A DNA stretch of 64,000 nucleotides, taken from assembly GCA_964016885.1 (NCBI GenBank), contig OZ024746.1:6138001-6202000 (forward strand). The letters are read 5' to 3'. This document shows, in pieces, positions 572-53,242 of this stretch. The notes beneath the pieces are model-generated. The model was not told the DNA's origin and searched no databases. It saw only the letters and a program-made list of their open reading frames with translations. The DNA comes from Eledone cirrhosa (lineage: Eukaryota). The position numbers and the translations under genes are program-made. The stretch's first letter is position 1, and each line of letters starts with the position of its first letter.

Positions 572-3500
572 ACAGCTGCATTTATCTTGCTTTATGTTCA
601 TACGAGTTATCACCAAGTCACAACCAGTGACCTCAAGAGACAACAAGGTCCGCCATGTTCAAGAAAGAACATACATACTCAGACATGCATCTTTAGTGTT
701 TAGACTTGTGATGTACTTATATTGACAGAATCTTCCTTAGTATATGGGCAGTTCCCATTAGTACTATCTTTTGTATTTCTCCTATACGCGGGTTTCCTGG
801 GATTTGCGATAAGTAATCAATAGACCCCTTAGGTATCATTCCTAGAGCGCCTACAACCACTGGTATCGTTTTAGTTCTCAATTTCCACATTTTTCCAATT
901 TCTATCTCCAGGTCCTTATACTTGCTCAATTTTTCAAATGTTTTTATAGATACATTCTTGTCTATTGGAATGGACATATCAATTAGCCGGCATACTCTCT
1001 TTTTAAAGTCCTTCAGTATTATATCAAGTCTATTTGCATCTACTTTTCGGTCTGCTTGAGATGTGATCTTTTTTAAGTATGGGAGGTGGTTGATGCTCCC
1101 ACCAATTCTTTTGATGGGGCAGGTCAAAATGCTTACACATTATCCAATGTATGTATTGTGCAGCTCTGTCATGCCTGTTTAGGTATTCGGTTGAAGCTAC
1201 AGGACTGTACATTGAAATTATATGATCAATGGTCTCTGGTTGTTTTTTTACATACACAGCATAATGGGTTGCATCCATTTTTTATTATGTTGGCTTGGTA
1301 ATTTTTTGTTGGCAGACACTGATCTTGTGCTGATATAATCAGTCCTTCAGTCTCCGATTTCAGTCCAAAGGATACCAACCACTGATGGGTTAAAGTTTTG
1401 TCAACATCAGGATTGTTAGCTCTTTCTGGGTATTTTCCATACAGAGGCTTTTCTTGCCATTTCTTAGCCAGTTTCTGTAGCAGTTCTTTCTTTGCAGTTA
1501 CTTTTACCTGCTTTGCTTTTTCTGTGTTTTCCATTTCAGCAGTAAATGGGACTTCTGAAATTTGTAGTCCATTACTGTATCTTTGTGCATCTTTTGTAAT
1601 GGAGTATGATCTTTTGATTCTTTCCTGTTTCAAAACGAGTTTGATCATCCAATCATGTGACTCCCTTAGATATGTAGATAATCCAATTGTTGCAGTTTTC
1701 AACACAATATCTAACTGGATTAACCCACGTCCTCCTTCTTTCCTAGGGAGATATATTCTATCTGTATCTGCCTTAGGGTGATGCTTTCTGTGCATGGTTA
1801 AGAATCTTCTAATTTTTGTATCGAGCCTACGGATCTCTGTGCTTGACCAGTTGATGACATTGTAACTGTAGGTTACTACTGGTATGGCAAGCGTGTTTAT
1901 GGCATCGATCCTATTCCTTGCATTCAATTCCGTTCTTAAGATTGCTCTTACTCTGCGGTAACATTCCTTCCTTATCCTTTCCCTCATTGTCTAGTGCTTG
2001 ATTCCGTCTCCTTTACAAATCCCTAGATATTTGTAAGTTTCCCCTAGTTCTCTTATCACATTCTCCCGATCAAGATTAATGTCTGAACTTTTCAGCAGCT
2101 TCCCTCTGGTGAACGTTGCTTTGGCGAATTTATCTAGTTCAAACTCCATTTTAATATCATCACTGAACTGCTCCACAGTGGATAATAGCCCTTGCAATTG
2201 TTCATCATTTTTTTGCAAATAGTTTCAGGTCATCCATGTAGAACAAGTGATTAATGGTTTTGTCATAGACTTTATATCCATGTTTTGTTTCATTGAGCAT
2301 TTTACTTAATGGTATAAGTGCGATGCAGAATAAAAGCGGTGATAAAGCATCACTCTGAAAAATTCCACAATTAATTTTAACTTCTCCAACTTCCAGTGAT
2401 TGTTTTCACTATTCAAAAGGAGTGTCGTTTTCCATGTCTTCATACTGAATGACAGGAACCTCCTGACAACGGGAGATATTTTGAAAATCTCTAAATATTT
2501 TTCAATCCAACTGTGTGGCAAACTATTGAATGCTTTTTTATAATCTATCCAAGCAATTGATAGATTTTTGTGTCTATGATGACAATCTTCCAGTATCATT
2601 TTGTTAACCAAAAGCTGGTCCTTACAGCCATATGAGCCTCGTTTACACCCTTTCTGCTCAATGGGAAATAGATGATTTGTTATCAGGTGGTCATATGTAT
2701 ATTCAGTTAGGACTGATGTTAAAATTTTATACATTGTGGTCAAGCAAGTTATTGGTCTGTAATTTTGGGGATTGTTTGTCTCATCATTCTTCGGAAGCAG
2801 GAATGTAATGCCGTTAACTAGCCATGATGGTATCTTTTCTGGCTCCTTAACTATTTCATTGTAAAGTTGGGCTAACAGCTCATGAGACTCTGTGAAGGCA
2901 TTTATTTAAAAATTTGGTATTTTGTCTTTTCCTGGGGATTTCCATTTGCTGGTTTTTCTAAGAGCCAAACGCATATTTGTTCCTCAAAGTGAGCTGTATC
3001 TTTCATTTGTCTGTCTGTCCATGGGGCATGTATATTATGAACGTTTTCTTCGGCCCAGATCTTTTCCCAGAATTCTTGCACTTCCTCCTTGGGTGGTATT
3101 GATTTAGCAGTTATTGTTGACTTGCCAATTTTTCTGTAGAAGTTTCTTTGGTTGTTTTTGAACATATTATTGTCCTTATAGAATCTAGATCGTTTTTCAA
3201 AGCGTCTTATACGAGCAGCTTTGGCCGACACTTTTTGCTTGATTATTTCTATCAGCATGTCTATGTCACTTGTTGATTTTATATTGTGTTTCCTTTTCAA
3301 TTTTCTAAGTTTAGTTTGTTTAACATGTTCACCTACTTTGTAGTTTGTTAAAATGTCTATGTCAGATCGGAGAAGGTTTATTTGGCGATTGATGTTCTCT
3401 TGCCAAGTAGATATCTTGTGGGAATTCCTTTGTTTTGTCATTTTCACTCCACATAAGTGAGTGGTGACTTTAGCCGATGCATGATAGATATGATTTAAAT

Positions 3501-4478
3501 CAGTAATGCTTAGATTGTTTGCGATGATAATGGTTTTGATAATTATGTTAGTCTTGTGTATTATCTTTTGGTTCTGTTTGGAGTTCTGGATCTTAGGGAT
3601 AGTGTCTCGTTCCCCCATGTCAGATTCTTTCATTTTCATCCATTCGATCATAATTTCATCCTTCAAGTTCATTTCATTCATTTTCATTCATTTCTTTATG
3701 ATTTACGATCTCATTGTTTTCATTTTGAGTTTCATCATGGGCATGCACTCCCTCCACTTTTTCGATCCTTTCTTTAATTTGTTCTGTTGTCAGTGATTCC
3801 GCCCCAACCCTGGGATTCGAAGTGTTACAATTTACCTCGTTTTCACTGACACATGTTTCATTTTTCCTTCGCTGACTTTGTGCTAATAGCTTGATCTGAT
3901 CAATTTCTATATCAGTTAGTAACTTTTTTTTAACAATATTTCTTCGTATATTGGCTAGTTTGTTACTGTCAATATATCCTCTGTTTTCGGGATGTTTCTT
4001 TTTCCAGTTGATATATGTCTGTTCTGTATTCGATCTATTTGATGGGTAGTACATAGCAGTGTAGAAAGCCTCAAGAACTTCTTTATTGTCTTCCCTTGAC
4101 CATTTTTCTCTCTTTTTCTTTGGATTTCTTGGTGGTGAGCATGGAGGGCCAACAGTAGGAATATTCTGGTTATGGGAGGTCTCCAGCTCCGAAGTGATGG
4201 GAAGGTTTGAACCATTAGCTAATTTTTCCACCCCAGTCTGGTTCCTCTCTGAGGGACGCGGCCCTTTTTAACCCGGGTGACGGCCGATCCGGTATGAGAT
4301 TTTATCATTTGACATTTACTATATTTTGTCGCGTTTTATCCTTAACCGCCAAGGGGTAACCATTTCGTGTTACCACTTCTAGGACGAGTGTCAACCAAGA
4401 CTAGAGGGGTCGTCCTCCCCTAGAGACACGCCTATTCCCCGCCGGCCGCCATCCTGGTATTTCTTGGTCACGGGGTTT
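572..4478 (-). mobile_element. Near full-length, frameshifted R4/Dong-clade non-LTR retrotransposon (RT + CCHC + restriction-like endonuclease)
   Basis: Consecutive minus-strand ORF pieces: N-terminal KKREKWSREDN; QKGCKRGSYGCKDQL; AWIDYKKAF; NHLFYMDDLK (~2225-2255); RIYLPRKEGGRGL; CxxC..ETIDHI; RHD; KLSKYKDL and VVGALG endonuclease motifs. The 3' end runs into (TAA)n. Multiple stops and frameshifts. Confidence 0.92.
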
Positions 4479-4789
4479 TATTTTTTGTTGTTTTTTTAAA
4501 TTGTTATTATCATGAGTGGTTCCTTAATGTGAGCATTGCGTGGCTTAAGAATGAAATTATTATTAATAATATAATATACTTTTTGTTGAAGTTGCCTGTT
4601 ATTTTTGTTGGTATGTCGGTGGTGGTGCTGGGGCTTTTTCTATTGTTGGTGGGGAAGGGGGAGCCAGCAGTGCCATAGTTGTTGACGTTTGACCGGGTCA
4701 TTAAGTCAGTCTATTTATATATTTTGCTAGCCTCTCCCCTGTCTAGTGATACCGCCACCTTTCCCTTTCTTAAGTTAACAGAAGGTAGT

Positions 4790-4940
4790 GGGGGAATAGT
4801 GATGGTAGCAATGAAGGAGTGGTGGCGGCGGTGATGGGATAGTGGTAGCAATGATGGAGTGGTGGCGGCGGTGACTATAGTGATGGGATAGTGGTAGCAA
4901 TGATGGAGTGGTGGCGGCGGTGACTACAGTGATGACGTTG
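4790..4940. repeat. Short GGT/GAT-rich tandem repeat (~3 units)
   Basis: Repeated gtggtagcaatgatggagtggtggcggcggtga. Confidence 0.7.
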
Positions 4941-5325
4941 TCGTTACTGAGTTTTGTTTAATATACTGTAGTAGTATGCGTTTGTTTGATCTGTGTATCT
5001 ATGCGGTTTGTCGCGTATGTTTAATATATGCGTTGACATATTTCCTTAATATTTGAATTAAACATTTTGAGAAAACTTGAGATACAATACTAGTAATTAT
5101 TATTATTATGCTGGGATTGGTGGTGGTTGTGGTGAAATTGCCGTTATCTGGCTGCTGTATTTAGTGTACACAGAGGGGTGATAGGATAGGTGGTGTATCT
5201 AGTTTGTGGTGTTGGTAAAATTGCTGCTATTTGGCTGTTCTATATAGTGTAGACAGAGGGGGTTTTCTTCCATTTATAACCATTTTCTTTTTTGAATATA
5301 AAATTTATTTATTATTATTATTAAT

Positions 5326-6274
5326 ATGTCTTCAGGCGCTCACAGCACTCAACCAATCGGGCAATGTGATCAGTGGAAACTCCACCTTGGCGTTCTATAG
5401 AGGATTAGTGGAGGGGAAGAGCGACGACGTACTTGGGGAAACTCTAGGCGTCGACGAAAATCAACTAGCCAGTCTCTTCGGAAGAACTTTCGGGCCGGGA
5501 CCTATGGACAACTTCCAGAAATCCCTGGCCTGGCAGTGCTACCGAGGAGCTTTGCCAGTTCGGGATAAACTCTACCGGCATGGAGGTGCCGTCAGCCGGG
5601 CATGTCCGAGATGCGCGCAGGGCGACGAAACCGTCCTGCACGCACTTGTCCAGTGTCCGAGCATTGCTGACTTGTGGGTTTATGTCGAACACCTACTGTC
5701 GCGTGTAGAACGGATCCGGCTATCAGCTGAGACCATCGTGAGGATTGCTCCGCCCTCCTCCTTTAGCCGGGAAGGGCAGGCAATTTTTATCTGTCTGGTG
5801 GCCATGGTGAAAGAGATAGTATTGTGGACACGTTTGAAAGGCCTGAAGACGAGCACTTACCTCTTCGGTGATGCCCTGATTGACTTTTTCAAATTTCATT
5901 TGAAAAGGAAAATCAGGGTAGAGAGGAAAGTGCTCTCTTCCCAGCATTTTGTTGAAAGATGGGTGAGAGAGGCAAGAATGGCCCGAGTTAATGGGCCTAC
6001 TCTGAGTATGTGTCTGTAAATTAAAGGTGGAAAACTGGGAGAGGGCACTTGCCCTGGTGGTCAGAGTCACTGTGGCGTTTTGATGGGCTTTCTCCACGAA
6101 TATCCCTCGGAAGTCTCACCCCTATTGGGGAATTTTTCATTGTTATTTTTTTATCAAATCCTTTGTTTTTTTTTGTTTTTTTTACACGCAGAAATGCCCA
6201 TTTTACCGTCTTGTATTGTCCTGTACTGTCCTTAATGTCTACTTTATGTAAAGCCTTGTGGTTAATAAAGAAAG

Positions 6275-6275
<1 letters not shown>
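5326..6275 (+). mobile_element. 5'-truncated L1/Tx1-like LINE (ORF2 C-terminus with zinc-binding domain, plus 3' UTR)
   Basis: GC-rich block. ORF has LAWQCYRGALPVRDKL and CPRCAQGDETVLHALVQC (zf-RVT-like), stops at 6019, and is followed by a 3' UTR ending aataaagaaagc(ATT)n. Homologous to 25340-26522. Confidence 0.88.

Positions 6276-6331
<56 letters not shown>
6276..6331. repeat. (TTA)n microsatellite shared as the tail of two tail-to-tail retroelements
   Basis: Direct reading. Confidence 0.95.
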
Positions 6332-6333
<2 letters not shown>

Positions 6334-8535
6334 CTTGAATCTCAGTCATTGATGTTGGTTAACTGGAAAGTCCGTTGGAATGAATATCAAGCCACTACCT
6401 GCAGCCTCAGATATTCAGGACGTATCGGAGGGTTCTTGCTGTTCCCAGCAAGCATGCCTTTTGAAGCGTTCCAAAAAGCGTGAAGGGGCCGATTTTCTTT
6501 AACCATCCCTGGAAACTTTTGGAGATAGTCCCCAGTGCGCCTATGACAATCGGGATCACTTTGACTTCATGGCAGTTCCAAATCCTTTTTACCTCCCACT
6601 TTAAGTCCTGGTATCGGTTAATTTTCTCCCTCCCCTTCTCTTGCACTCTCGTGTCGAATGGGCAGGCCACATCCACAATCAGACACGCTCTTTTTTCTTT
6701 GTCCACAACCACCAGGTCAGGTCTATTGTGTTCCAGTTTCTTGTCCGTCTGTATCCTAAAATCCCACAGCACCTTCACCTGATCGTTCTCCATCACCGCC
6801 TCTGGCCTATGCTCATACCATTTCTCAGAATGTGGTAAATTGTTTACTTTGCACAGGTGCCAGTGGATCACCCTGCCCATCACATCATGTCTCCAGCCCT
6901 TATAGTGGGTCTGGGCTAGGTGTTTACACTCGGATACAATGTGAGCCACAGTCTCCTCTCTCTCTCCACAGATCCTGCACAGTGGACTAGCCTCCTCCTT
7001 GTAAATATGTTGTTTCAACCACTTCGTTTTGAGGGCCTGCTCCTGCGCAGCCATTAACATTCCTTCTGTAGCCTTTTTGAGGTCTCCTCTTCTCAACCAG
7101 TTCCATGTCTGTGGATCTCTAAATTCAGTTTTCTCAAAGAAGGTACTATGAAGGGATTTTCCCTGAAGGCTGCTCTTTCTCCTTGATGTTATTTCCTCCT
7201 TGGATATCCCCTGGTCTACTGTCCCCTCCTTCAGTACAGTTCTGAGCATTGGCTCCTTACTATCAGTCACGTATTTGTATAGGTTGTTTTTCTCCATCTG
7301 AACACAGTCCTCTATGCTGATAAGACCTCTTCCACCCTCAGATCTCCTTAGGTAGAGTCTATCGACATCACTCCTCTTGTGGAACATGTTGTAGATAGTC
7401 AATAGCTTCCTAGTCTTCCTATCCATTTCTTTTTGTTCAGCAACATTCCATCTCAGAATTCCCGCACTGTATCTAATAATAGACACAGCTCGGGAATTTA
7501 CTGCGCTTATGGCATTTCTGCTGTTCAGATGTGACTTCAATACGCTCCTTACTCTCCGAATGTATTCAGTTCTTAGCAATCCCTTCATTTTTTTGTTCTT
7601 TATGCCATCAGCCTCCAGAACTCTCAAATACTTGTATCCTTCCTCAGAGTCAATTTCCTTTATCATCTCACCTGTTGGTATCTGGATTCCGTTACTTCTG
7701 CTCAACCTACCCCTCCTCATCACAATGACTCCACACTTACTAATACCAAACTGCATACATATATCACTGCTGAAAATACGGACAGTGTCAACAAGCACAT
7801 CCAACTCCCTCTCACTCTTCCCGAAGAGCTTAAGATCGTCCATGAAGAGGAGGTGATTGATGGTAAGTTCTCCCTTTCCCAACTTGTATCCTGCTCTCAC
7901 TTTTCACAGCATAATGGTCAAGGGCATCAGGTCAAGGACAAACAACAGAGGGGACAGGCTATCTCCCTGGAAGATACCTCTCTTGATCTTCACGCTTCCC
8001 AAGGATTCTCCAGTTGATGTCAACTCTGTCTCCCAGGACCCCATACTCCTGCCCAGCAACTGTCTGATGTTATCTGCCACCTTGAAGATCTCCAGGCTTT
8101 TGGTGATCCAAGAATGAGGCACCATGTCAAATGCCTTTCTGTAGTCTATCCATCCCATGGCAAGATCAGTGTGTCTCCTCCTGCAATTCCCCATTACCAT
8201 CTTATCAATAAGTAACTGGTCCTTTGTACCACGTGACTTCTTTCGGCATCCTTTCTGTTCGTGCGGTAACAAGTTGTTTGTGTGGAGGTGATGGTAGATT
8301 TCCTCAGACACAATGCTCAACAGTTTCCACATTACGGACAGACATGTGATAGGTCTATAGTTGGTAACATCATTACCCTTGATTCGGTCTTTCTTTATCA
8401 GAACTGTGGTACCTTTTGTCAACCACTCTGGCACCTCACCCGACACCAAGCAGAACATGGCCGTCAGTTTCCGGTGGAGGGATGTTAAATTTTTAATCCA
8501 ATACCTCTGCACACCATCTGGGCCTGGTGATTTCC
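6331..8535 (-). mobile_element. 5'-truncated R4/Dong-like retrotransposon, second subfamily
   Basis: NYRPITCL, QKGC, GIFQGDSLSP, LLFMDDLKLF, CRICGEREETVAHIVSEC, RHD, RPDLVV..VDVACP, EKINRYQDL, IVIGALG. Flanked by (TTA)n on both sides, as expected for TAA-targeting Dong elements. Confidence 0.93.
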
Positions 8536-8555
8536 AGTTGGTTAGTTTTTTGGCC

Positions 8556-8622: not shown

Positions 8623-8810
8623 GGACGGTGGATTGGCAGTATCGGTAGAGGGTCGGACGCTATGCTTTCCAACATAGTTACGTCCCTTTACAGTCTGAGT
8701 TCAAATTCCGCCGCGGTTAACTTTGCCTTTCATCCTTACGGGGTCGATAAAATAAAGTACCAGTAATGTACTGGGTATTTGCTGGCCTTGTGCAAAAAGT
8801 AGAAACAATT
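8623..8810 (+). mobile_element. tRNA-derived SINE with Deu/Nin-like core (family A)
   Basis: A-box-like tggcagtatcggt, B-box gagttcaaattc, core gcctttcatccttacggggtcgataaaataaagtaccag, tail ggccttgtgc..agaaacaattatt. attattataggac occurs on both sides (8614-8626, 8808-8820), TSD-like. Confidence 0.85.
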
Positions 8811-9540
8811 ATTATAGGACAGTTTTAACAGATAAGGTGTTGAAAATCCGGATATTGTGTGTCACTAAATGTGTCTCTATCAACTGTCAATAATTTTCCT
8901 AACGATTCAGTGCTCCTTAAAAGCAAGCTTTCTGGAGTAATGCTATAGGGCACTCAATGTCTATTTCCATTATTCTAATGATCATGTTACAGTTCTCTAG
9001 GTCCCTACCCCTGCTGGTATCACTTTAATCTTCTTTAATTTCCACAATCGTGCAATCTTATGTTTTAATGGATTCTAATTGTTTTCCTTTCCTTTACTTT
9101 TTTCTTCACTGTTGAATCAAACACTCTATTTCGTTTGTATTGTTCAAGTCATGCATTATACATTTGCAATTTAACAGCATTTGCCAGAGGCATTGTTTTA
9201 CTTCTTCGTCTTCTATATCTAACCCTTTTTTTGCTTTCTCGGTACATATGTTTCAGTTTATAATATGGTCCTTTCGTTCTTCCTTTTTCATTCTGTTTAT
9301 TTTTCCCAAATCAGCCATCCTTTTTATTTTCAGCCTGGTTTTTGTTCTCTATTGTCGTTCTTTATTTTTCAATGTCTGGTCCCTAACATACTTTCCATGT
9401 CCTTTTAATTCTGCTACTATTTTCCCCTTCATCCCCCAAATTGGTGCCTTGTGCCTAAATCAGAAACCATTAGTATTGTTATTATTGCTCCTGCTGTTAA
9501 AATGTAGCCCAACTCATTCTCAGATTTAATTATAATAAAA

Positions 9541-9670
9541 TAATTGTTTCTACTTTTGGCACAAGGCCAGCAATTAACCAGTGCATTACTGGTACTTTAT
9601 TTTATCGACCCCGTAAGGATGAAAGGCAAAGTTAACCTCGGCGGGATTTGAATGGCAAGGGCCGTAACTA
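9541..9670 (-). mobile_element. SINE family A, truncated
   Basis: Reverse complement of the core and tail. Confidence 0.8.
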
Positions 9671-10914
9671 TTTCAGAATTCTGTTGAAAATAGCAACTCA
9701 CAAAATAATTGCTTGACAAGGATAACGATGAAGAATTGCTTTTTATAAACAACGGAATCTACTTTTCACTAAATATTAAGAATAAAAACCTTGTCTCCGT
9801 GACCACATTTTGAATTTTCCACATGATATTATACACAAAGAAATATTTATGCTAAACGTCAACATTAAGGAAGGGAAAACATACTTGGATTAAAAAATGA
9901 TAACGAATTGACAACTAAAAAAGTCCATGAATTTATATATAGATTTATTGATGGACACATTATAAAAATCTTGTTTTATATATGTCAGAAAACAGTGTAT
10001 ACCATGGAAAGTTTAAACGTTACACCCGACAGAAATTTCTGAGAAGGATTAATCCATAAGGAGGTGAATTTATGAATAATTTTAAATGCAAATCTAGTAG
10101 CTTTTGTGGCATTCCAACAATTCGCGAAAGCAATAGAATAAATGAAGCATTATATTAATGGGTTATCACAAATTATGACAGATAGTAGCTGGGAAACATG
10201 GATATATTGAACGTCTAACATTTTAGATCATCTTCCTGAAATAAACTACAACGAGTGAAATAAAGAGAATTAAATGCAGAAATTTAGTATTAGATATATT
10301 CACAAGAGTTTGAAAACAATATATATGTTTGCTAATTATATCAATCTCCAATCTAATCACATTAATATGAAAGTATTGACATGAAAATTCGGATTATAGT
10401 CCCCTAAATATTGAACAACATTCTCTCTGATTGTAAGCTTCCGTAAAATCAACATCATCGAAATTGGTGATAACAATCTAGCCTGAGGTGCAGATCTCAT
10501 TCAGTAAAGAAACCTTTTATGTATTTGGTATGAATTCTTGGTTTTGTCAGATTGCACATATAGTGTATGCAGTTTGCGCATGTTCTTGACATTTCAATTC
10601 AGTTGTGTCTAGAAGGGGTAATTATTTTCCGTAAAATTTATATTTTTTTTAATGTGAACAGTTCATCATCCGCAAAAGGGTGACAACTCTATTAAATAGC
10701 AAGAAATCGTTAACTATAAAACAGAATGTAAAGATTTTTTGCACGGCTCCAATCTTGTTTGTCAAAATTGTACGCCAACCACAAATTTATAAAGAAGACA
10801 TCATTAACATTGGCTCTTATGTGATGAATAATGATAATCTACATTCGCACTCCTGTTATTTAGCACATATGTTCTCATATAAGTACAGATGCAAGCAAGA
10901 AGTGATTTATTAAC

Positions 10915-11131: not shown

Positions 11132-11170
<39 letters not shown>

Positions 11171-11176
<6 letters not shown>

Positions 11177-11537
11177 AAGTTAAATAAAAGTCAAATGATT
11201 AAAATTTAGCTTCGTTTATTACTGCTATATATATTTCAGTGACAGCCATCTTTGGCTGTGACCTCTTCAGGCAGTTTGAATTAGTATGGTATGGACAAGT
11301 ACATATGTTGTTTAGGTGTATGATATTGTCAATACTCTGATATGCCCAGTTCCTTGTTGGGTTGTTAATTCACTGAGGAACTGGAGTCATATATGACTCC
11401 AGTTCCTCAGTGTTTTAATCATTTGACTTTTATTTAACTTTATTTTACACTACTCCGGAGTAACCAAACCAACCTGCGCACTTCGTCGAGTGCTCCAGCC
11501 TGCATACTGAGGTGTTGGTATACAACCAACATAAACT

Positions 11538-11542
<5 letters not shown>
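11171..11542. mobile_element. ORF-less foldback element (Penelope pLTR-like) between (TA)n tracts, family HH-1
   Basis: 34-bp inverted repeat 11171-11204 / 11413-11446; internal palindrome 11371-11412; tail 11447-11540 shared with 24858-24941. Confidence 0.8.
11221..11275 (-). ncRNA. Type I hammerhead ribozyme motif
   Basis: Minus strand: ACUGC-CUGAAGA-[ggucacagcca aaga uggcugucacu]-GAAA-UAUAUA-UA-GCAGU. 5-bp stem I, palindromic stem III. Confidence 0.85.
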
Positions 11543-14826: not shown

Positions 14827-14892
14827 TATTTTATCTGATGAAGGCGCACCATAATTTGCCTTGGTTGCCCTTGAAATATGTATAATAAAATA
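14827..14892 (+). ncRNA. Type I hammerhead ribozyme motif in a ~380-bp unit between (TA)n tracts
   Basis: UAUUUUAU-CUGAUGA-[aggcgcacca...ugguugcccuu]-GAAA-UAUGUA-UA-AUAAAAUA. 8-bp stem I. Confidence 0.8.
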
Positions 14893-22359: not shown

Positions 22360-22550
22360 AGGGCGGTGGATTGGCAGTATCGGTAGAGGGTCGGACGCCA
22401 AGCTTTCCAGCATAGTTACGTCCCTTTACGGTCTGAGCTCAAATCCCGCCGAGGTTGACTTTGCCTTTCATCCTTACGGGGTCGATAAAATAAAGTACCA
22501 GTAATGCACTGGAGGAATTTCTGGCCTTGTGCCAAAAGTAGAAACAGTTA
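22360..22550 (+). mobile_element. SINE family A
   Basis: Full head, core and tail. Confidence 0.85.
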
Positions 22551-22654
22551 TGTTTCAACCACTGGTGCTGCCAGTCGTTGGGGTGCCATTCTAGATGTGC
22601 CACTGGTACCGAAAGTCGTTGGGGTGCCATTCTAGATGTACCATTGGTGCAACT

Positions 22655-22860
22655 ATTCGTTGGTGTTGCCCTTAAAATCTGTACAGCGATTCTTTCAAGA
22701 GACATTCTAATCACATAGCCATAGTATCAGAGCTGTGATCTCTCCATTCGGAGAAGTAGTGATTCTCTCATCTCCGAGTTACGCATTCTATCGCGTAAAC
22801 ACATTTCGAAGGAATCTCATTTCGGCCGCTTGTTTTCGCGATCTATATACCCATGACTGG
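22655..22860 (-). mobile_element. RTE-like internal fragment
   Basis: YGYVIRMSLERIAVQILRATP; similar to 16445-16850. Confidence 0.6.
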
Positions 22861-23457
22861 CGGATATATATATAACTTACTTAAGTTATAAAAATATATA
22901 ATTATACTATTTGTATATATCTATTACTCTCTCTCTCTCTGTATATATATATACATATATATTCAAAAGGTAAACAGAAATAACAATACAATCGGTACAG
23001 TATATGGAAGGAATATATTAAGTTAACGTTCTAAATAGCAGGAAGAGGGTCGTACAAATTGAAAGGACTGGCAGTGCGGAATCGGAAAAAAATGCTTTTA
23101 GAGAAAAATAACAGGTCCATTTATGTTGCCATCTCTTGGAAAACTGTTGATACAATATACAAATAGTGTAATTACTTCTCTTGCCTAGCATATTTATAAG
23201 AAACACGACCAATTGTGAATTACATAATTATAGTACAATTTGTTAACTAAAGTCATTTATATTCCTAACATTTAAAATAACGTAAGCTTTTTTGTTGTTT
23301 TATTTGTTTTTCTTGCATTACATATATTATTCTATGAGAAATATTTGAGAAATGATGCTCCTGAGGTTGGATCAATTATGTCCAATATTTGAAATATATG
23401 AATATGATTACAGCGGATCGTTGTAATTCTAAACTCTTCTCAGAGACGTTCTTTATA

Positions 23458-23645
23458 ATAATTGTTTCTACTTTTGGCACAAGGCCAGCAATTACCCAGT
23501 ACATTACTGGTACTTTATTTTATCGACCCCGTAAGGATGAAAAGCAAAGTTAACCTCAGCGGGATTTGGACTCAGAATGACAGGGTCTGTAAATCTATGC
23601 GTCAAAGCATGGCGTCCGACCCTCTATCGATACTGCCAATCCACG
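23458..23645 (-). mobile_element. SINE family A
   Basis: Reverse complement of the full unit. Confidence 0.85.
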
Positions 23646-24367
23646 TGTTTTTTCCCGCTACTTGTTACATGCGATGTTCTTCTTTCAGTAAATAGCAGTA
23701 TTTATTAAAACATGTAGTTAATAAAATACAGTTTGTAATCAGGCAGACTGGTTCATGATTGGTTGTTATTTAAGTCCAAAATTTGTAGATCAATGATGCT
23801 ACAGTATGGTTTTAGGGAAATTTGGCTGCTATTTTTATTATGTCTAGCGAATTAATATAACTGTCTTTATATCTATTATACATAAAATGTTTCTCATATG
23901 TATGTTAGCTCTGTTTTCAAATACTTATATTGGTGTATATTTATAGTGATAGGGAGAAAGATAGACATATATCAGCAGACACAGGGACATACACACACAT
24001 ATATAGACACACACATATATAGACACACACACACACACAATTTATTATCGATATAACACCATATTTGCAGCCTGTCCCTGGATCGAATCTTCTATTTTCT
24101 ATCTTCTATTTTTTCTCTGTCTCCTATCTTCCATTCTATGTTTGGGTTCAACATATCCTGTTACATAATTCTGCACATAAAATCGCTTTGTCTTGCATCA
24201 TAATCGGATCATAGAGCTGGGACATCGAAATAGAATTCTAAAGGAAATTTTCCATTCAGGCTTTGTGTTGTTTTAATGAGTATATATATATGAGTATATA
24301 TATATATATATAAAATAAAGTAATTAAGTCAAATATTTAAGATTTGGCTTCGTTTATTAAAGATGTA

Positions 24368-24420
24368 CTGCTATATATATTTCGGTGACAGCCATCATTG
24401 GCTGTCACCTCTTCAGGCAA
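24368..24420 (-). ncRNA. Type I hammerhead ribozyme motif
   Basis: UUGC-CUGAAGA-[GGUGACAGCCA auga UGGCUGUCACC, perfect 11 bp]-GAAA-UAUAUA-UA-GCAG. Confidence 0.88.
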
Positions 24421-24748
24421 TTCGAATTGGTGTGGTAGAGACAGGTACACATGTTGTTAAAGTATTTTACTCCGTCAATACTCCGATATGTCCAGCTCTT
24501 GGTTGGGTTGTTATTTCTCTGAGGAACTGGAATCATATGAATTCGAACAAATGAATTTCGGCATCATAGGACACTCTCTCCTCCCATTGGTCAGTTGTGA
24601 GAACATTCCTCAGTCAAAAGTTCGAATTTCTTATGATTCCAGTTCCTCAGAGAGATAACAACCCAACCAGGAGCTGGACATATCGGAGTATTGACGGAGT
24701 AAAATACTTTAACAACATGTGTACCTGTCTCTACCACACCAATTCGAT

Positions 24749-24801
24749 CTGCCTGAAGAGGTCACAGCCAATGATGGCTGTCACCGAAATATATATAGCA
24801 G
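24749..24801 (+). ncRNA. Type I hammerhead ribozyme motif
   Basis: CUGC-CUGAAGA-[ggucacagcca auga uggcugucacc]-GAAA-UAUAUA-UA-GCAG. Confidence 0.88.
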
Positions 24802-24939
24802 TACATCTTTAATAAACGAAGCCAAATCTTAAATATTTGACTTAATTACTTTATTTTACATTACTCCGGAGTAACCAAACCAACCTGCGTACTTCGTCGA
24901 GTGCTCCAATCTGCATACTGAGGTGTCGGTAAACAACCA

Positions 24940-25024
<85 letters not shown>

Positions 25025-25029
<5 letters not shown>

Positions 25030-25215
25030 GGATGAATGTTTAGTATATTTGGCAATACACCTTATGTTTAAGTAAAAAAACATTTTCGCGGAAAAGAGGT
25101 TAGTGACATAGTCACTACTTTAAAACTGATACCGTATGGTCTTCTAAATGGTTTTAATTAAATATACGGTGTATATTCATGTATACGTCGCTATTTCAGA
25201 GCACCAATACTAATA
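25025..25215. mobile_element. Degenerate, ribozyme-deleted relative of the foldback element at 51890-52225
   Basis: Shares tagtatatttggcaata, agtgacatagtcactactttaaaa and tcgctatttcagagcaccaat. Confidence 0.65.
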
Positions 25216-25248
25216 TATATATACAGAGAGAGATAGATAGATAGATAA

Positions 25249-25339: not shown

Positions 25340-26813
25340 TGTTTCTTTTATTTGCCACCAGGGTATCAAAAGTGGGACAAGTACAATGGGGGGGGGGTTT
25401 ACAAAACAAGGCGTCCTCAATAAGGGGGAGGCAATAACAATATATAAAAATAAAATAAAATATAACAAAAAATAAAATTTATAACAAAGTCCTCAATAGA
25501 GAGGAGGCGCCTTGGGGGGTCGCAGACACCCCCGAAAAAAAGTGTGCAACCCTTTTCCTCGGGAGCACAGAGAAGGGGTGCTCCCTTGGTCTTTCATCTT
25601 CCTCACCTATAGTCTGATGTAGAGTGAAGGCCCATTCACACGGGCCATTCTCGCCACTTTCACCCATCTTTCATAAAAACGGCTGGGGTGCAGCACCTCT
25701 CTCTCCATCCTGATCCTTCTTCCGAAATGATATCGGAAGAAACGGACCAGTTGTTGGCCAGAGAGAAAGGTGTCTGACCTCAGTCCTTTCAGACGCGTCC
25801 ACCATACAACCTCTTTCGCCATGGCTATTACGCACAGAAATACCGCCTCTTCTTCGTTTTTGAAGAGGGGAGGCGGCTTGATCGTTACAATAGACTCGGT
25901 GGTCAACCGGATCGGTCCCACCCTTGACAGCAGTTGTTCGACATAGCCCCACAGATCGGCAATGCCCGAGCAGTGTACCAATGCGTGTGCAACGGTTTCC
26001 TCGTCGCACACGCATCTGGGACAGATCTTTTTCGAGGGGTCGCTACCCGGGCGCCCGTGTCTGTAGAGCCTTTCTCGAACGGGCAGAGCCCTTCTGTAGC
26101 ATTGCCAGGCCAGGGACCTCTGAAAGTTATCCATGGGTCCCGGGCTGAATGTCCTACCGAACAGGTTGGCCAGTTCGTCTTCCTCCATGCCTAGGGCTTC
26201 TCCGAGGGCGTCGTCGCACCTGCTAACCACCAGCCCTCTATAGAATGACGAGGTGGATTCTCCACTGACAGCCGGGTCCGCTTGCCAGAGAGCCGTGAGC
26301 GCCTGGGCACACTCGGTGTGCCAGGCGCCCAGTTTTCTCGGTCTTTGCTTGACCCAGGATTGCAGCTCGGTGAGTGAGACGAGTCTGGGAAAGGCTCGCC
26401 TCACAAACGGGGCCCACACCGGTTGACCGGAGAGGAATACCTGAAGGTGCCGTAGCCTTAATGCGTGTTTACGTATCATTAGCCACGGCATCCCCAGCCC
26501 TCCTTTCGAAGGGTGTTGACGGCACGTGGAGGGGCAGATCGATGCCCTCCGATGGCGTCGTCGGGCGCTGGACGGAGGGCCCGGTGAAGTTGCTCGGGGT
26601 CTGGTTCGGACCAAACCTCCAGGTGGAGAAGAACTGGGGTGAGGTAACGAACAGGGTGTTTGCACTGACCCAGAAGTGGGCCGAGTGCAAACTGTCCCTG
26701 AAAGGTCGGGCGGAGGTGGCGAACACTTATATAGCGCCCGTCATCTACTACCGCCTGACCGTTGTGCCTTGCCCTAGGGAAACGCTCGCCAAAATGGAGC
26801 GCGCACTCTTCCA
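25340..26813 (-). mobile_element. 5'-truncated, 5'-inverted L1/Tx1-like LINE in a (GATA)n tract
   Basis: Minus strand 25340-26522: CRQHPSKGGLGMP...CPRCVCDEETVAHALVHC plus 3' UTR. Plus strand 26521-26813: upstream RT thumb VKLLGVWFG...LSLKGRAEVAN...ERALF. Confidence 0.88.
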
Positions 26814-26866
26814 GATAGATATAGATATAGAAGTTAGAATTAAGAGAGTCGTATTTCAAGAGTTCT

Positions 26867-28505
26867 ACCAATTACCTCTACTCTATAACCAGTCTTACTA
26901 CTATGACGCTATTACCTATACTCTATAACCAGTCTTACTACTATGACACAATTACCTCTATTCTATAACCAGCCTTACTACTACGACACAATTACCTCTA
27001 CTCTATAACCAGCCTTACTACTATGACACAATTACCTCTACTCTATAACCAGTCTTACTACTATGACACAATTACCTCTACTCTATAACCAGTCTTACTA
27101 CTATGACACAATTACCTATACTCTATAACCAGCCTTACTACTATGACACAATTACCTCTATTCTATAACCAGCCTTACTACTATGACACAATTACCTCTA
27201 TTCTATAACCAGCCTTACTACTACGACACAATTACCTCTACTCTATAACCAGTCTTACTACTATGACACAATTACCTCTATTCTATAACCAGCCTTACTA
27301 CTATGACACAATTACCTCTACTCTATAACCAGTCTTACTACTATGACACAATTACCTCTACTCTATAACCAGTCTTACTACTATGACACAATTACCTCTA
27401 TTCTATAACCAGCCTTACTACTATGACACAATTACCTATACTCTATAACCAGCCTTACTACTATGACACAATTACCTCTACTCTATAACCAGTCTTACCA
27501 CTATGACACAATTACCTATACTCTATAACCAGCCTTACTACTACGACACAATTACCTCTACTCTATAACCAGTCTTACTACTATGACACAATTACCTCTA
27601 TTCTATAACCAGTCTTACCACTATGACACAATTACCTCTATTCTATAACCAGTCTTACCACTATGACACAATTACCTCTACTCTATAACCAGTCTTACCA
27701 CTATGACACAATTACCTATACTCTATAACCAGCCTTACTACTACGACACAATTACCTCTACTCTATAACCAGTCTTACTACTATGACACAATTACCTCTA
27801 CTCTATAACCAGCCTTACTACTACGACACAATTACCTCTACTCTATAACCAGTCTTACTACTATGACACAATTACCTATACTCTATAACCAGCCTTACTA
27901 CTATGACACAATTACCTCTACTCTATAACCAGTCTTACTACTATGACACAATTACCTATACTCTATAACCAGTCTTACTACTATGACACAATTACCTCTA
28001 TTCTATAACCAGTCTTACCACTATGACACAATTACCTCTATTCTATAACCAGTCTTACCACTATGACACAATTACCTCTACTCTATAACCAGTCTTACTA
28101 CTATGACACAATTACCTCTATTCTATAACCAGTCTTACCACTATGACACAATTACCTCTACTCTATAACCAGTCTTACCACTATGACACAATTACCTCTA
28201 CTCTATTATCAGTCTTACCACTATGACACAGTTACCTATTCTATAACCAGTCTTACCACTATGACACAATTACCTCTACTCTATAACCAGTCTTACTACT
28301 ATGACACAACCACATCTACTCTATAACCAGTCTTACTACTATGACTAAACCACATCCACTCTATAATCAGTCTTACTACTATGACATAATTACCTCTACT
28401 CTATAACCAGTCTTACTACTATGACACAACCACATCTACTCTATAACCAGTCTTACTACTATGACTAAACCACATCCACTCTATAACCAGTCTTACTACT
28501 ATGAC
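26867..28505. repeat. 40-bp minisatellite (~41 units)
   Basis: attacctctactctataaccagtcttactactatgacaca tandem. Confidence 0.97.
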
Positions 28506-29962: not shown

Positions 29963-32112
29963 TTCCTTGAATCTCAGTCATTGATGTTGGTTAACTGGAA
30001 AGTCCGTTGGATTGAATATCAAGCCACTACCTGCAGCCTCAGATATTCAGGACGTATCGGAGGGTTCTTGCTGTTCCAAGCAAGCATGCCTTTTGAAGCG
30101 TTCCAAAAAGCGTGAAGGGGCCGATTTTCTTTAACCATCCCTGGAAACTTTTGGAGATAGTCCCCAGTGCGCCTATGACAATCGGGATCACTTTGACCTC
30201 ATGACAGTTCCAAATCCTTTTTACCTCCCACTTTAAGTCCTGGTATCGGTTAATTTTCTCCCTTTCCTTCTCTTGCACTCTCGTGTCGAATGGGCAGGCC
30301 ACATCCACAATCAGACACGATCTTTTTTCTTTGTACACAACCACCAGGTCAGGTCTATTGTTTTCCAGTTTCTTGTCCGTCTGTATCCTAAAATCACACA
30401 GCACCTTCACCTGATCGTTCTCCATCACCGCCTGTGGCTTATGCTCATACCACTTCTCAGAATGTGGTAAACTGTTTACTTTGCACAGGTGCCAGTGGAT
30501 CACCCTGCCCATCACATCATGTCTCCATCCCTTATAGTGGGTCTGGGCTAGGTGTTTACATTCGGATACAATGTGAGCCACAGTCTCCTCTCTCTCTCCA
30601 CAGATCCTGCACAGTGGGCTAGCCTGCTCCTTGTAAATATGGTGTTTCAACCACTTCGTTTTGAGGGCCTGCTCCTGCGCAACAATTAACATTCCTTCTG
30701 TAGCCTTTTTGAGGTCTCCTCTTCTCAACCAGTTCCATGTCTGTGGATCTCTAAATTCAGTTTTCTCAAAGAAGGTACTATGAAGGGATTTTCCCTGAAG
30801 GTTGCTCTTTCTCCTTGATGTTATTTCCTCCTTGGACATCCCCTGGCCTATTGTCCCCTCCTTCAGTACAGTTCTGAGCATTGGCTCCTTACTATCAGTC
30901 ACGTATTTGTGTAGGTTGTTTTTCTCCATCTGAACACAGTCCTCTATGCTGATAAGACCTCTTGTGGAACATGTTGTAGATAGTCAATAGCTTCCTAGTC
31001 TTCCTATCCATTTCTTTTTGTTCAGCAACATTCCATCTCAGAATTCCCGCACTGTACCTAATAATAGACACAGCTCGGGAAGTTACTGCGCTTATGGCAT
31101 TTCTGCTGTTCAGATGTGACTTCAATACGCTCCTTACTCTCCGAATGTATTCAGTTCTTAACAATTCCTTCATTTTTTTGTTCTTGATGTCATCAGCATC
31201 CAGAACACCTAAATATTTGTATACTTCTTCAGTATCAATTTCTTTTATCATCTCACCTGCTGGGACCTGGATTCCATTGCTTCTGCTCAATTTACCCCCC
31301 TCTTTATCACAAGGACTCCACACTTACTAATACCAAATTGCATACATATATCATTGCTGAAAATACGGACAGTGTCAACAAGCACATCCAACTGCTTCTC
31401 ACTCTTCCCGAAGAGCTTAAGATCGTCCATGAAGAGGAGGTGATTGATGGTAAGCTATCCCTTTCCCAACTTGTATCCTGCTCTCACTTTTCTCACTGTA
31501 ATGGTCAGGGGGATCAGGGCAAGGACAAACAACAGAGGGGACAAACTATCTCCCTAGAAGATACCTCTCTTGATCTTCACGCCTCCCAAGGATTCTCCAT
31601 CCGATGTTAACTCTGTTTTCCAGGACTTCATACTTTTGCTCAACAACTGTCTGATGTTATCTGCCACCCTGAAGATCTCTAGGCTTTTGGTTATCCAAGA
31701 ATGAGGTACCATGTCGAATGCCTTTTTGTAGTCTATCCATCCCATGGCAAGACCAGTATGTCTCCTCCTACAATTCCTCATTACCATCTTATCAATAAGT
31801 AACTGGTCCTTTGTAGCACGGGTCTTCTTTCGGCATCCTTTCTGTTCGTCCGGTAACAAGTTGTTTATGTGGAGGTGATGGTAGATTTCCTCAGACACAA
31901 TGCTTGTTAACAGTTTCCACATTACGGACAGACATCTGATAGGTCTATAGTTGGTAACATCATTAGCCTTGGTTCGGTCTTTCATTACCAGAACTGTGGT
32001 ACCTTTTGTCAACCACTCTGGTACCTCACCTGACATCAAGCAGTCATTGAACATGGTTGTCAGTTTCGGGTGGAGGGATGTTATATTTTTAATCAAATAC
32101 CCCTGCACACCA
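29963..32112 (-). mobile_element. 5'-truncated R4/Dong-like retrotransposon, close relative of 6331-8535
   Basis: Near-identical RT/CCHC/RLE peptides and 3' UTR; small internal deletion near 30960; (TAA)n tail. Confidence 0.92.
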
Positions 32113-33479
32113 CGGGGTAAACGGGGCTGCGATGGACATTCACTCAAGACCTGTTTACGAGAGTAGATAAAGTGAATAAAGTGTCAACGGCCATCCCTCA
32201 AATATATAAGCTGAGCCCTCATTAAAACGTTTGTACTTAGCATTGCTAATTCTTTTGACAACCCTCGAATCCAGGAGAACTGGGTAAGTCATGTCCTATA
32301 AGTGTGAAAACCACTCAAATTACATTAAATCAGTCCTGACTAGGATTATGATCATCACATTTTAACTGTCAATCATTTCCCCGCAAGAGATGAACTTCGT
32401 TTGCATATACAGATAGTGGATGAATGATATTGTTGCTGTAGTTTTAGTAATTTCAGATGTATGCTGCTCAAACTCATTCCATAAATCACCTAGAATGGTT
32501 ATGCGAGTTATTATACTATATAATTGCCACTTCTGTTCATATAATATGCACATTTCATATGCACTTTATTGCCAAAATTATAAAATCTGTTTCTGACAGA
32601 ACGTGACGTGATGCAAAAATTCTAAGAGCAGATTTTAAGTAAATAAATTCGATAAGATTGACGTATTTCATGAAAAATATCTACAAAACAAACAATCTCT
32701 TCTAAAATTCAGCTTAGTATAATTCCTTTAGCATTTTCCATTTTCTGAAAATGTATTTGTGAAACAAAATCACCATTTTATAATACGAAGCAATTGTGTT
32801 TACCTAATGTAGGTATACTGGTAGTTGTTATATATATACGCTTCCTGAAAACAAACAATTGAGAAAATATTCTGTTGGTTTGTGTGGTATTAAACATTTT
32901 GTGAAAAAGCTACACTACAAAGTTCTTTAGGTGATCTGCTACGAGCTTCATCAAAAGTTCGATCCCGTCGCTTGGCTCTTGCTGGTTATGTTTCCCACCA
33001 TGATGAACCTGGAAGTCTGAAATAAGAACTTTTTGCATGTTTGACCTTCGGTGGAAGGATGACTCAAGAAGAAGAATAACTTATATTGTAAGCATCGCAA
33101 TAAAAACAAACAAATGTTAAAACATTCCGCTATTCTCTTCATCTACAGGAAAATAATGGAATTGCCTTTCTATTTCTCATATCCACTTGGCTATTTAACA
33201 GAAAATACGTATCTTTATCCCCCCTACTACAAACAGTACTTACATCACATTGATATTTACGTGGCTGGGCTAAAACTTTTATAGGCTGACTATGAAAGAG
33301 TGATGCAATAGCTGTGAAATCATGCAATGATTTCAAACCTTCTTATTAATAACTATATTGTTTCTTTCCAAGGACTATGTTAAAAAATAAACCTCATTTG
33401 GTCATTCCATGAGAGTATCTTCGTCAGCCTATGAACATAATTAATTTTAGAAAATATATTTATGCACAACACAGGGTAT

Positions 33480-40337: not shown

Positions 40338-40591
40338 ATATATAAGATCAAAAGATGGTTAAAAGAGTTCCATGTATTTTATTATGCGCATTTCAAAAAC
40401 AAATGCAATGAACATGTTGATTCAAAATGAACATGTTGATTCAAAACTGCACTATTCACAAGTGTTTTTTAACCTTCATATTCATGTCTTCCTATTTTAT
40501 CTGATGAAAACACAAATATTATTGCATGATGATATTTGTTTTTGAAATGCGCATAATAAAATACATGGAACTCTTTTAACCATCTTTTGAT

Positions 40592-40637
<46 letters not shown>

Positions 40638-40662
40638 ATCAAAAGATGGTTAAAAGAGTTCC

Positions 40663-43159: not shown

Positions 43160-44100
43160 CATGCATGGATATGTTGCCAAGATGCTCCAAAGTGAGCGTA
43201 ATATAGATAAGCAAAGTAACAACAACCACTATATTGGTTCCCACTTTGAAGGATACGCTTTTGTAATCCAGGAACAGGAAATCAACACAAAATACCTGAT
43301 TCACAAATGAGATATGGATGCAGGCAAAAGACCTAGATATGACAAATGCAGACTCTGTAGAATTAACATCGAAGATGTCACCCATGTCATATACAGTTGT
43401 CTAAAGATGTCATCACGGTACTATCTACCCATGAGGCATGATGAAGGGGCCAAAACACTGTATAATGCAATCCGTAGAAAAGATAGCCCCGACAATACAA
43501 GCACATTAAAAGTTACAGAAATGTGGAAGACATACATATACATAATATGAAAGAATACTGGTGGACTGTCCCAGTAAAACCCCAATAAGATTCAGGCATA
43601 ACAGACCAGATATAATAATATGGGACAGGGAAAAGAAGGCATGCACAGTAGCGGAAGTTAGCTGCTCAGCAGATGCCTATATAATATCTAAGATTAGCGA
43701 AAAGGAGAATATGTATGCAGAACTGATGAGAAATCTGCAGATACTCCACCCTGACTATACCTTCAGATTTATACTTGTGATTATTGGGGCACTGGGGTAT
43801 GTTAGTAACTGCCTCAATACAAATCTTGTGAAGCTGGGCTTCACAGAAACAGAAAGAACACGAGTAGTTAGGAAATTACAAGTACAATCCATTAATGGAA
43901 CAGTAAAAATATGTAGAACATTCCAAACATTTTGCATCTAATAACTGCATATACAGCATAACTGCATATGTACAGATACAAAGCTTATGTACATGCACAC
44001 ATACAACTCAAAACATCCACATCCACACATACAATAACATCCATATATACACTTGCATGCATACATATATCTCTACCTAGTTGATGTTGTGTAAATTACA
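43160..44100 (+). mobile_element. 3' fragment of a third RLE-type (R4/NeSL-like) retrotransposon
   Basis: CRLCRINIEDVTHVIYSC, RHD, HNRPDIIIWD..EVSC, EKENMY, VIIGALG; frameshifted. Confidence 0.85.
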
Positions 44101-51639: not shown

Positions 51640-52222
51640 TATAGGGAGAGAGTCAAAAAGCCATATATCGTTTGAGAAACACATAGTATTTTGTTAATAT
51701 ATATAATATAATATTTAGGGAAAATACGTACTTCAAGGTGGAAAAGTTCTTATTTACTACTTTACTTTGAATTATTGGTGCTCTGGGCAAATGTCCAGAG
51801 TTTCTACTGGAAAATACAAGCATCATAAATATATATGTGGTGATACCTTAAATTAGAATATATATATATATATATATGCATATATATATACATATATGAG
51901 TGTATGTATAGTATATTTGGCAATATACTGTATGCTTAATTAAAAACATTTTGAAGACCTTGCGCTATTATTTTAAAGTATGTCACTTCTTTTTTCAACA
52001 AACAAAGGGAGATAAGCTGACAGATCTGTTTCACACTGTTGGTGATCATCAGAGCTTAGCACTCGCCGATGTTTGTTGAAAAAAGAAGTAAGTGACATAG
52101 TCACTACTTTAAAATAATAGCGCAAGGTCTTCAAGATGTTTTTAATTAAGCATACAGTGTATTGCCAAATATACTATACATACATTCATATATATATATA
52201 TCGCTATTTCAGAGCACCAATC

Positions 52223-52257
<35 letters not shown>

Positions 52258-52340
52258 TTGAAGTACGTATTTTTCCTAAATATTATGTGCTTTGTATATA
52301 AACAAGATACTATGTGTTTCTCAAACGATATATGGCTCTT

Positions 52341-52350
<10 letters not shown>
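51640..52350. mobile_element. Nested inverted repeats; the inner foldback element carries a hammerhead (family HH-3)
   Basis: Outer arms ~51640-51737 / 52258-52350; inner arms ~51892-52004 / 52070-52192; (TA)n tracts between them. Confidence 0.78.
52013..52058 (-). ncRNA. Type I hammerhead ribozyme motif with a GUC cleavage triplet
   Basis: UAAGCU-CUGAUGA-[uCAC caaca GUGu]-GAAA-CAGAUCUG-UC-AGCUUA. 6-bp stem I, palindromic stem III, weak stem II. Confidence 0.8.
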
Positions 52351-52418
<68 letters not shown>

Positions 52419-52710: not shown

Positions 52711-53242
52711 ACGTATCTATGTATGTTTCGAATATGACTTTTCATGTTAGCACTAAACCCACCACAGAATCCTTATACGATCACTTACTCATCACCAACA
52801 CTATCATATTCTGTATTTACATGCTCTCACTTATCCTTATATATTTATTTATTTATTCATATTTGTATTATTTTTCCATTTTCTTACTTTTCCCCTATTT
52901 ATCATATATATTTTATTATTGGCCTTGGGCCAAAAAGTAGAAACAATTATTTACCTCTGACCAACTACAAAAACAATTCACTCAGGCAAGATATATATAT
53001 AGAAATAGCGTATAATCAAAACAATAACATCAATAAAAAAAATATATATAATAAATAGTGGAAAAGTAAGAAAATGGAAAAATAATACAAATATGAATAA
53101 ATAAATAAATATATAAGGATAAGTGAAAGCATGTGAGTACAGAATATGATAGTGTTGGTGATGAGTGAGTGATCGTATAAGGATTCTGTGGTGGGTTTAG
53201 TGCTAACATGAAAAGTCATATTCGAAACATACATAGATACGT
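52711..53242. repeat. ~200-bp inverted repeat with a SINE tail in the spacer
   Basis: 52711-52912 is approximately the reverse complement of 53040-53242. Confidence 0.88.

Follow-up and report, generated by a model that had tools for sequence, protein, structure and literature searches.

A two-armed Penelope-like insertion with opposed hammerheads in Eledone cirrhosa and the pairing of unlike ends in its family

The hairpin locus and its hammerheads

Within the window (i.e., the whole 64,000-nucleotide stretch of Eledone cirrhosa DNA that was analyzed), local alignment placed two inverted arms at 24308-24548 (241 bp) and 24620-24861, which differ by 7 mismatches and 1 indel and are 71 nt apart. 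For the same hairpin, an ungapped inverted-repeat finder returned 234-nt arms at 97%, and the original prediction of arms of ~235 bp with few mismatches agrees with both. Two of the arm differences are edge effects, one (24310/24859) just beyond the element end and the other (24538/24631) at the junction. The stretch between the arms, predicted as a spacer of ~70 nt, has about that length but is not neutral, as it consists of family sequence in antisense that extends the left arm as far as 24621. Among the 40 copies scored in a search of the species' own genome, many have this sequence immediately upstream of the arm and on the other strand; left arm and "spacer" are therefore one continuous antisense family piece, and the true junction is the 2-nt overlap listed in Table 1. 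Past 24621 the family antisense continues differently, and in the ~10 nt that follow the junction we found one substitution and one insertion relative to the family. This junction was placed by alignment overlap, as the exact-extension script applied to the family's junctions gave no score for it.

Table 1. Features of the two-armed insertion, in window positions (site 1 is the tail-less end of the element)
Feature	Position	Strand	Basis
Left flank, (TA)n microsatellite, target side	24281..24310	.	sequence
Left arm: 5'-truncated element end, ends at site 1, tail-less, includes the "spacer"	24311..24621	-	family reference 4038-4351, 97%
Type I hammerhead, dimer-type; core 24416-24410, predicted cut after 24372	24367..24421	-	descriptor scan, folding
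Unpaired hairpin loop: additional element sequence, left arm only	24549..24619	-	
Head-to-head junction, 2-nt overlap	24620..24621	.	alignment overlap
Right arm: pLTR portion as far as site 1	24620..24858	+	family reference 4111-4348
Type I hammerhead, dimer-type; core 24753-24759, GAAA 24786-24789, predicted cut after 24797	24749..24801	+	descriptor scan, folding
Tail: initial 84 nt of the element unit (~96 nt in other copies)	24859..24942	+	
(AC)n run, then right (TA)n flank	24943..25027	.	sequence

The unpaired tail, also foreseen at 84 nt, follows the right arm directly. It ends ~12 nt short of other family copies, which continue beyond 24942 (the tail of the sister subfamily being 96 nt), and in full-length copies its sequence continues into the ORF. 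After the tail come (AC)9 and then (TA)35, and (TA)n is also present on the left side of the hairpin. An (AC)n run at the tail end was seen once among 39 terminal ends of the window's subfamily; it may have arisen by stuttering during priming, or the target may itself have been a compound repeat. Collectively, the locus is a doubly 5'-truncated, non-coding Penelope-like insertion in a TA microsatellite, an ordinary dead stub.

A descriptor scan of both strands revealed five type I hammerhead cores in the window. Two of them (+24753 and -24416) belong to the hairpin, one (-11270) sits in a second copy of the window's family, and the remaining two belong to other families; Rfam gave 0 matches at gathering score. 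In the hairpin, scanning and folding recovered the conserved core and the three stems on each strand. The - strand hammerhead has a 5-bp stem I with one wobble and a stem II of 10 perfect bp owing to a private change at 24406, and the + strand hammerhead has a 4-bp stem I and a stem II with the C-C mismatch of the family. In both, stem III is 2 bp long and its palindromic loop is self-complementary over 8 nt. Parts of PMC4209133 and PMC6765202 describe hammerheads with a 2-bp stem III as needing a second copy and cleaving poorly, so that the prediction of a full hammerhead per arm, one per strand, holds for the cores but for "full" only in a dimer-dependent sense.

In a model that leaves aside tertiary contacts, the probability of the monomer ribozyme fold was ~8e-4 in a 58-nt fragment. 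When both strands were folded, the predicted energies were -441 and -447 kcal/mol for the full hairpin, as against -13 and -19 kcal/mol for the monomer ribozyme folds. Since the two hammerheads lie on opposite strands, they cannot form a dimer within one RNA, and with the arms arranged head to head, transcription entering from either flank would reach the antisense arm first. The hammerheads are thus predicted to need a same-sense second copy and to be trapped in the hairpin of a read-through RNA. Two expectations of the original prediction were borne out here: whichever strand is transcribed, the RNA would carry one ribozyme together with its antisense arm, and in predicted folding the double-stranded hairpin wins over the ribozyme.

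Other repeats were also observed in the window. A second two-armed copy, of the sister subfamily, lies at 11167-11540 with a tail-less arm carrying its hammerhead on the - strand, a tail arm on the + strand, a 20-nt insert at the junction, and (TA)n on both sides. The type I cores at +14835 (in 14827-14890) and +40501 (about 40370-40660) belong to other AT-rich families, the latter lying within a small hairpin that adjoins (TA)n, together with a short duplicated segment. Directly after the window hairpin, a stub at 25030-25225 is 73-87% like a two-armed element of another family at 51643-52353, which contains a hammerhead-like core, and a 212-bp inverted repeat at 52711-53242 (96% identical) showed no hammerhead core by pattern scan. 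Inverted pairs of a short interspersed repeat, which we take to be a SINE and presumably one of octopus type, occur ~1 kb apart and 88% identical at 22366-23644 and 8674-9671. In addition, translations read by eye at 720-8554, 25610-26925, 30042-32183, and 43546-43938 contain ORF remnants resembling LINE-type retrotransposon proteins.

The element family and its coding potential

Our search of the 3.0-Gb genome returned 2982 first-look candidates, and the main match was 95-100% in 38 of the 40 that were scored. The longer copies reach upstream across a ~1.3-kb 3' UTR to a coding region. One of them (L033) shows the order inverted copy, truncated pLTR, tail, ORF, 3' UTR, pLTR, and tail, with a broken ORF. 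Partial pLTR tandems, an inverted 5' copy, and a one-sided tail were found in this copy, in L064 and L065, and in others. A sister subfamily with ~83% DNA identity to that of the window has open frames of about 890 aa, including an 892-aa RT/GIY-YIG ORF, and the unit lengths are 4135 and 4348 bp. The predicted layout of inverted pLTR, pLTR, and tail, as in Penelope insertions, was thereby confirmed and the family tied to an RT/GIY-YIG ORF.

The single ORF encodes a telomerase-related RT, as expected of EN+ Penelope-like elements (PLEs). The YRDD motif is invariant in all 44 aligned RT sequences, and the predicted structure of the L052 protein (mean pLDDT of 79.6) has TERT as its best PDB match, with an E of 1e-9. 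Its C-terminal GIY-YIG endonuclease has the VYG..YIG core with R, H, E, and N. Pfam yielded nothing at curated cut-off for ORF pieces and intact ORFs, and a search of the PDB by sequence profile gave 0 matches. Among Atlas look-alikes, PF01541 occurs on 26-50% of the members in several clusters, which serves as a lead only. The only named eukaryotic homologue is from Argonauta. Two long low-confidence inserts of the L052 model, at residues 480-615 and 696-745 in the thumb-linker region, recall the insert-bearing Penelope ORFs described in part of PMC3846280.

PMC8557442 gives RWK, DKT, CxCX5C, CxxC, CxH, and the lack of CCHH as defining features of the Hydra clade. In L052, RWK is at 37-39 (GxKF/Y being absent from the first 200 aa), DKT is at 120-122 and also occurs in L033, and the CxCX5C linker spans 752-760. 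CxxC (850-856) and CxH (878-880) surround E and N of the endonuclease, in which CCHH is absent, with a single Cys between VYG and YIG. The Cys/His motifs of linker and endonuclease are also present in L033, L034, and L031, and copies closer to the window's subfamily have RWR or TWR in place of RWK. The canonical hammerhead and the (TA)n target of the Hydra clade were found as well; the units are longer than the <3 kb general in that clade, a size that is a tendency there and not a diagnostic trait. Judging by these motifs rather than by a reference tree, the family is an abundant Penelope-like retrotransposon assigned to the Hydra clade. It is a new member family of a known element kind, whose inverted layout with opposed hammerheads has already been published.

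Several young two-armed copies (L053, L058, L066, L082, and L092) have inverted repeats of 1.5-3.7 kb and are 98-99% identical to the reference. In L053, open frames of 893 and 772 aa face outward.

Ends, arms, and junctions of two-armed insertions

Insertion ends fall at one of two positions, site 1 (tail-less) or site 2, which lies ~96 nt further on, and the site 1 boundary was identical in all 16 ends inspected. With regard to how these ends are paired, a census covered 60 of 150 matches, picked by RT similarity alone and thus not selected for their ends. All two-armed insertions with resolved ends in this set (43/43) combine site 1 with site 2; 7 of these were assigned manually (6 with tail-only arms mapping to the reference start and 1 with a split row), and 9 further two-armed insertions were left out since one of their ends had been cut off or disrupted or did not fall on either site. 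An independent 50:50 choice would give 43/43 with a probability of 1e-13. The loci selected by pLTR, mostly chosen with a tail on one arm and including the short-tailed copy of the window, follow the same rule in 16 of 16 resolved two-armed insertions, with 4 others unresolved. Combining both sets, 59 of 59 resolved two-armed insertions pair unlike ends (13 others unresolved) and like-ended pairs number 0.

Two seemingly single tail-less places hide a short tail arm, namely L129/L130 (probably one duplicated locus) and L134. These 3 loci, representing 2 places, came from 30 ends examined in the window's subfamily, and no hidden short arm was found beside 14 seemingly single or disrupted 5' ends of the RT-selected set. 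Single-armed copies exist with either end type; two arms are therefore not obligatory. In four two-armed copies (L059, L006, L008, and L021), the inverted piece ends at neither site. In 54 of 58 two-armed insertions, (TA)n borders the element on both sides. A 14-nt perfect palindrome at 24859-24872 begins 3 nt past site 1, and in both subfamilies small hairpins form when the tail is folded; palindrome and hairpins are candidates for a protein-binding signal.

The longer arm ends at site 1 in 23 insertions and at site 2 in 19, the arms being equal in 1 (p=0.64), and arm lengths range from about 20 nt to kilobases. The inversion point, which the original prediction proposed to compare, differs among the aligned family copies: the gap between the inner ends exceeds 500 nt in 42 of 58 junctions and is no more than 20 nt in 3. 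Microhomology was scored at 38 junctions, 20 of the 58 not being scorable. Half of those scored (19/38) have no insert and show a mean microhomology of 2.7 nt, compared with 0.65 at random (0/20000 draws), and the remaining 19 have inserts. Taken as sequence footprints, the two-armed junctions look like end-joining products.

The inner ends themselves appear to cluster 200-260 nt upstream of site 1 (11/108), and an 8-nt palindrome, with inner ends clustering nearby, forms the junction in L024 and L006. None of the 108 arm ends lies 50-99 nt upstream of site 1, the predicted hammerhead cut zone, which argues that cleaved RNA is not the usual template. In two separate insertions (L062 and L096) the inner end falls on the same reference position, 3841, which may correspond to the 5' end of a single source RNA.

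The two arms of an insertion share one lineage. In 25 of 30 pairs the arms are nearer each other than the subfamily median, which fits one RNA, one source, or later conversion.

Repeat runs at the outer ends were also compared. Directly after the tail, (CT)3+ occurred at 8 of 44 ends with a CT template and at 0 of 39 without one (Fisher p=0.006), and no (CT)n run was seen at 21 internal sites. Since the carriers are spread over several branches of the arm tree, they are unlikely to descend from one inherited event, and we read the run as probable slippage as synthesis begins. The corresponding signal at site 1 is weak: 3 ends have one extra unit and 2 have more, among 75 TA-flanked terminal ends, and similar lengthening was seen at 1 internal site.

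Origin of the two arms and comparison with known systems

We consider it probable that a two-armed insertion arises from two target-primed cDNAs that start at two fixed sites and are joined at their inner ends. More specifically, the element protein would cut both strands of the (TA)n target, two cDNAs would be primed, one at each of the fixed sites ~96 nt apart on the element RNA, and the inner (3') cDNA ends would then be joined head to head by host end-joining. One RNA might be copied twice via strand displacement in a protein dimer, which is the least tested step. The mechanism as a whole rests on genomic footprints. The template-matched repeat run suggests that site 2 is a start of target-primed reverse transcription, and single-armed copies ending at site 1, together with the in vitro behavior of another PLE, suggest that reverse transcription can start there as well. 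Part of PMC11167929 describes a Poseidon PLE for which both strands were cut and extended in vitro, with two starts flanking the tail. Because the start site was alike on both strands in that portion of the work, strict pairing is not in itself predicted by the in vitro data (PMC11167929). The similarity of the arms could instead come from later gene conversion.

A wider claim, that every two-armed Penelope-type insertion is the footprint of a dimeric RT-endonuclease copying one RNA twice from fixed starts with telomerase-like stuttering, seems to us evenly balanced between true and false. If true, such fixed-site twin priming would account at once for the inverted pLTR, for the tail on one side only, and for some of the microsatellite next to the insertion, and these elements would form a permanent supply of long hairpin RNA in the genome. 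We did not find a two-primer PLE model in the literature, though older PLE papers may hold an earlier version.

An unlikely alternative is that a single strand folds back by self-priming, possibly on antisense RNA, and that the endonuclease then trims one tail at resolution; passages of PMC3846280 propose the self-priming, and passages of PMC8557442 the endonuclease resolution for the tail. Palindromes at inverted junctions, reported in the former (PMC3846280, in part), are matched by the palindromic junction of L024 and L006, both arms are of a single lineage, and 3 of 58 junctions are near-symmetric as fold-back predicts. However, only those 3 of 58 are. An arm made by copy-back has to lie inside the strand that templated it, and trimming specific to one strand would place the tail consistently on the longer arm or consistently on the shorter one, whereas the observed ratio is 23:19. 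The template-matched (CT)n run, moreover, would mark site 2 as a start of synthesis, not a cut. At the window locus the tail-less arm is the longer one, so that fold-back gives the tail no template, and "foldback", the name under which the element was originally predicted, is probably the wrong mechanism for this copy.

The two intact cores and the very stable predicted hairpin might also be taken as signs of a retained RNA device, either an antisense-switched ribozyme or a locus supplying small RNAs or edited dsRNA for regulation of the family. We regard this as very improbable. Among 45 other copies, 8 of 540 core letters are changed (1.5%, vs 1.7% for the overall background) and the core is intact in 37, as expected at the family's age (P about 0.82 per copy); two intact cores in the window copy thus reflect youth. 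Compared with the family, the window arms have one rare change in common plus two or three private ones each, and the private changes of each arm include one in its ribozyme stem I. A special RNA device is thus not supported; the window hammerheads are the ordinary pLTR ribozyme copied twice, in an arrangement that is already published. As the cores change at the background rate and follow the antisense arm in a read-through RNA, the hammerheads are likely passengers. Hammerhead mutants of another PLE still insert in vitro, according to part of PMC11167929. Transgenic-fly Penelope siRNAs match inverted regions (part of PMC3681739), an analogy that makes the predicted ADAR or Dicer substrate plausible. 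Among window ORFs of at least 100 aa, a search in which short exons would be missed, no host exon was recognized. dsRNA is a possible by-product of the locus, and selection for it there has no support.

Slightly less probable again is that two independent insertions, or a later host rearrangement, set a tailed and a tail-less stub back to back. These microsatellites do gather several elements, such as the unrelated stub at about 25030-25225, and each end type is found single-armed. Independent insertions, however, should give like-ended pairs about half the time (0/59 observed), and they would tend to leave TA repeat where the arms meet (no insert of any kind is present at 19 of 38 scored junctions) and to mix subfamilies (no clear mix in 30 pairs). 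These counts largely refute this explanation. The least credible reading is that the assembly folded back on itself, or that the element is a DNA transposon of MITE type bounded by terminal inverted repeats: although the window junction is bridged by none of the listed read or contig pieces (short contigs and RAD-seq, mostly from other copies), the arms have private changes along with their shared rare one, the sequences on the two sides of the hairpin do not mirror each other, only one end carries a tail, inner ends differ between copies, and the family is linked to an RT ORF. A MITE or foldback DNA transposon was likewise rejected as the identity of the element by its unlike ends, by arms of ~20 nt to kilobases, and by the encoded RT. 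Unassembled sequence data from a different sample contain a head-to-head tail/pLTR junction belonging to the window's family, in 54 reads, perhaps from one RAD locus.

How PLEs come by their inverted repeats and their one-sided tails is an open question according to part of PMC8557442, and the window family is young and large enough for an insertion mechanism to be inferred from footprints. Sharp predictions for the in vitro system of PMC11167929 follow from the strict presence of one tail, from the fact that either arm may be the longer, and from the template-matched run. Hairpins that resemble "foldback" elements or MITEs and contain paired hammerheads would then, in many cases in such genomes, be retrotransposon ends. 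Long inverted copies could also supply RNA editing or small-RNA pathways, if transcribed.

In LINE-1 twin priming, both target strands prime cDNA and the head-to-head junction shows microhomology; the second primer anneals at a variable internal site and the cDNAs are non-overlapping. In the two-site priming proposed here, by contrast, the start sites would be fixed and the cDNAs would overlap, giving an inverted duplication.

With Hydra-clade PLEs (PMC8557442), the window family shares RWK, DKT, CxCX5C, a GIY-YIG endonuclease that lacks CCHH, CxxC/CxH, the canonical hammerhead, and the (TA)n target. Penelope-13_HM likewise has an inverted 5'-truncated copy with a hammerhead on each strand, as given in part of the PMC8557442 supplement. 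Clade members are generally <3 kb (PMC8557442), whereas the window family has a unit of 4.1-4.3 kb, owing to its ~1.3-kb 3' UTR and long low-confidence protein inserts. It is also distinct from the octopus family Hydra-1_Obim (2507 bp), since both the length and the hammerhead sequence listed in that portion of the supplement differ from its own.

Like the metazoan PLE dimer-type hammerheads in parts of PMC4209133 and PMC6765202, those of the window have an intact core, a stem I of 4-5 bp, a long stem II, and a 2-bp stem III; unlike them, the window pair lies on opposite strands and cannot dimerize within one RNA. Animal non-LTR retrozymes, as far as described in part of bioRxiv 10.64898/2026.07.22.740005, are also short, non-coding, and PLE-derived with a type I hammerhead, but the window copy is the truncated end of a coding element and not a tandem ORF-less unit. 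Classification of the locus as a non-LTR retrozyme (tandem ORF-less units) was accordingly rejected, its sequence being the 3' end of a 4.3-kb coding unit.

Close parallels in layout are D. virilis Penelope (PMC2377424), Pen2a_Av (PMC3846280), and PAc (PMC11167929), for which parts of these sources describe partial tandems, an inverted 5'-truncated copy, AT-rich targets, a tail at one end, and two start sites flanking the tail, as found here. The tail is ~96 nt in the window family, compared with 30-40 in that set. In those portions of the published record, the tail of EN+ PLEs is optional or often one-sided, whereas here it is present strictly once per resolved two-armed insertion, on either arm.
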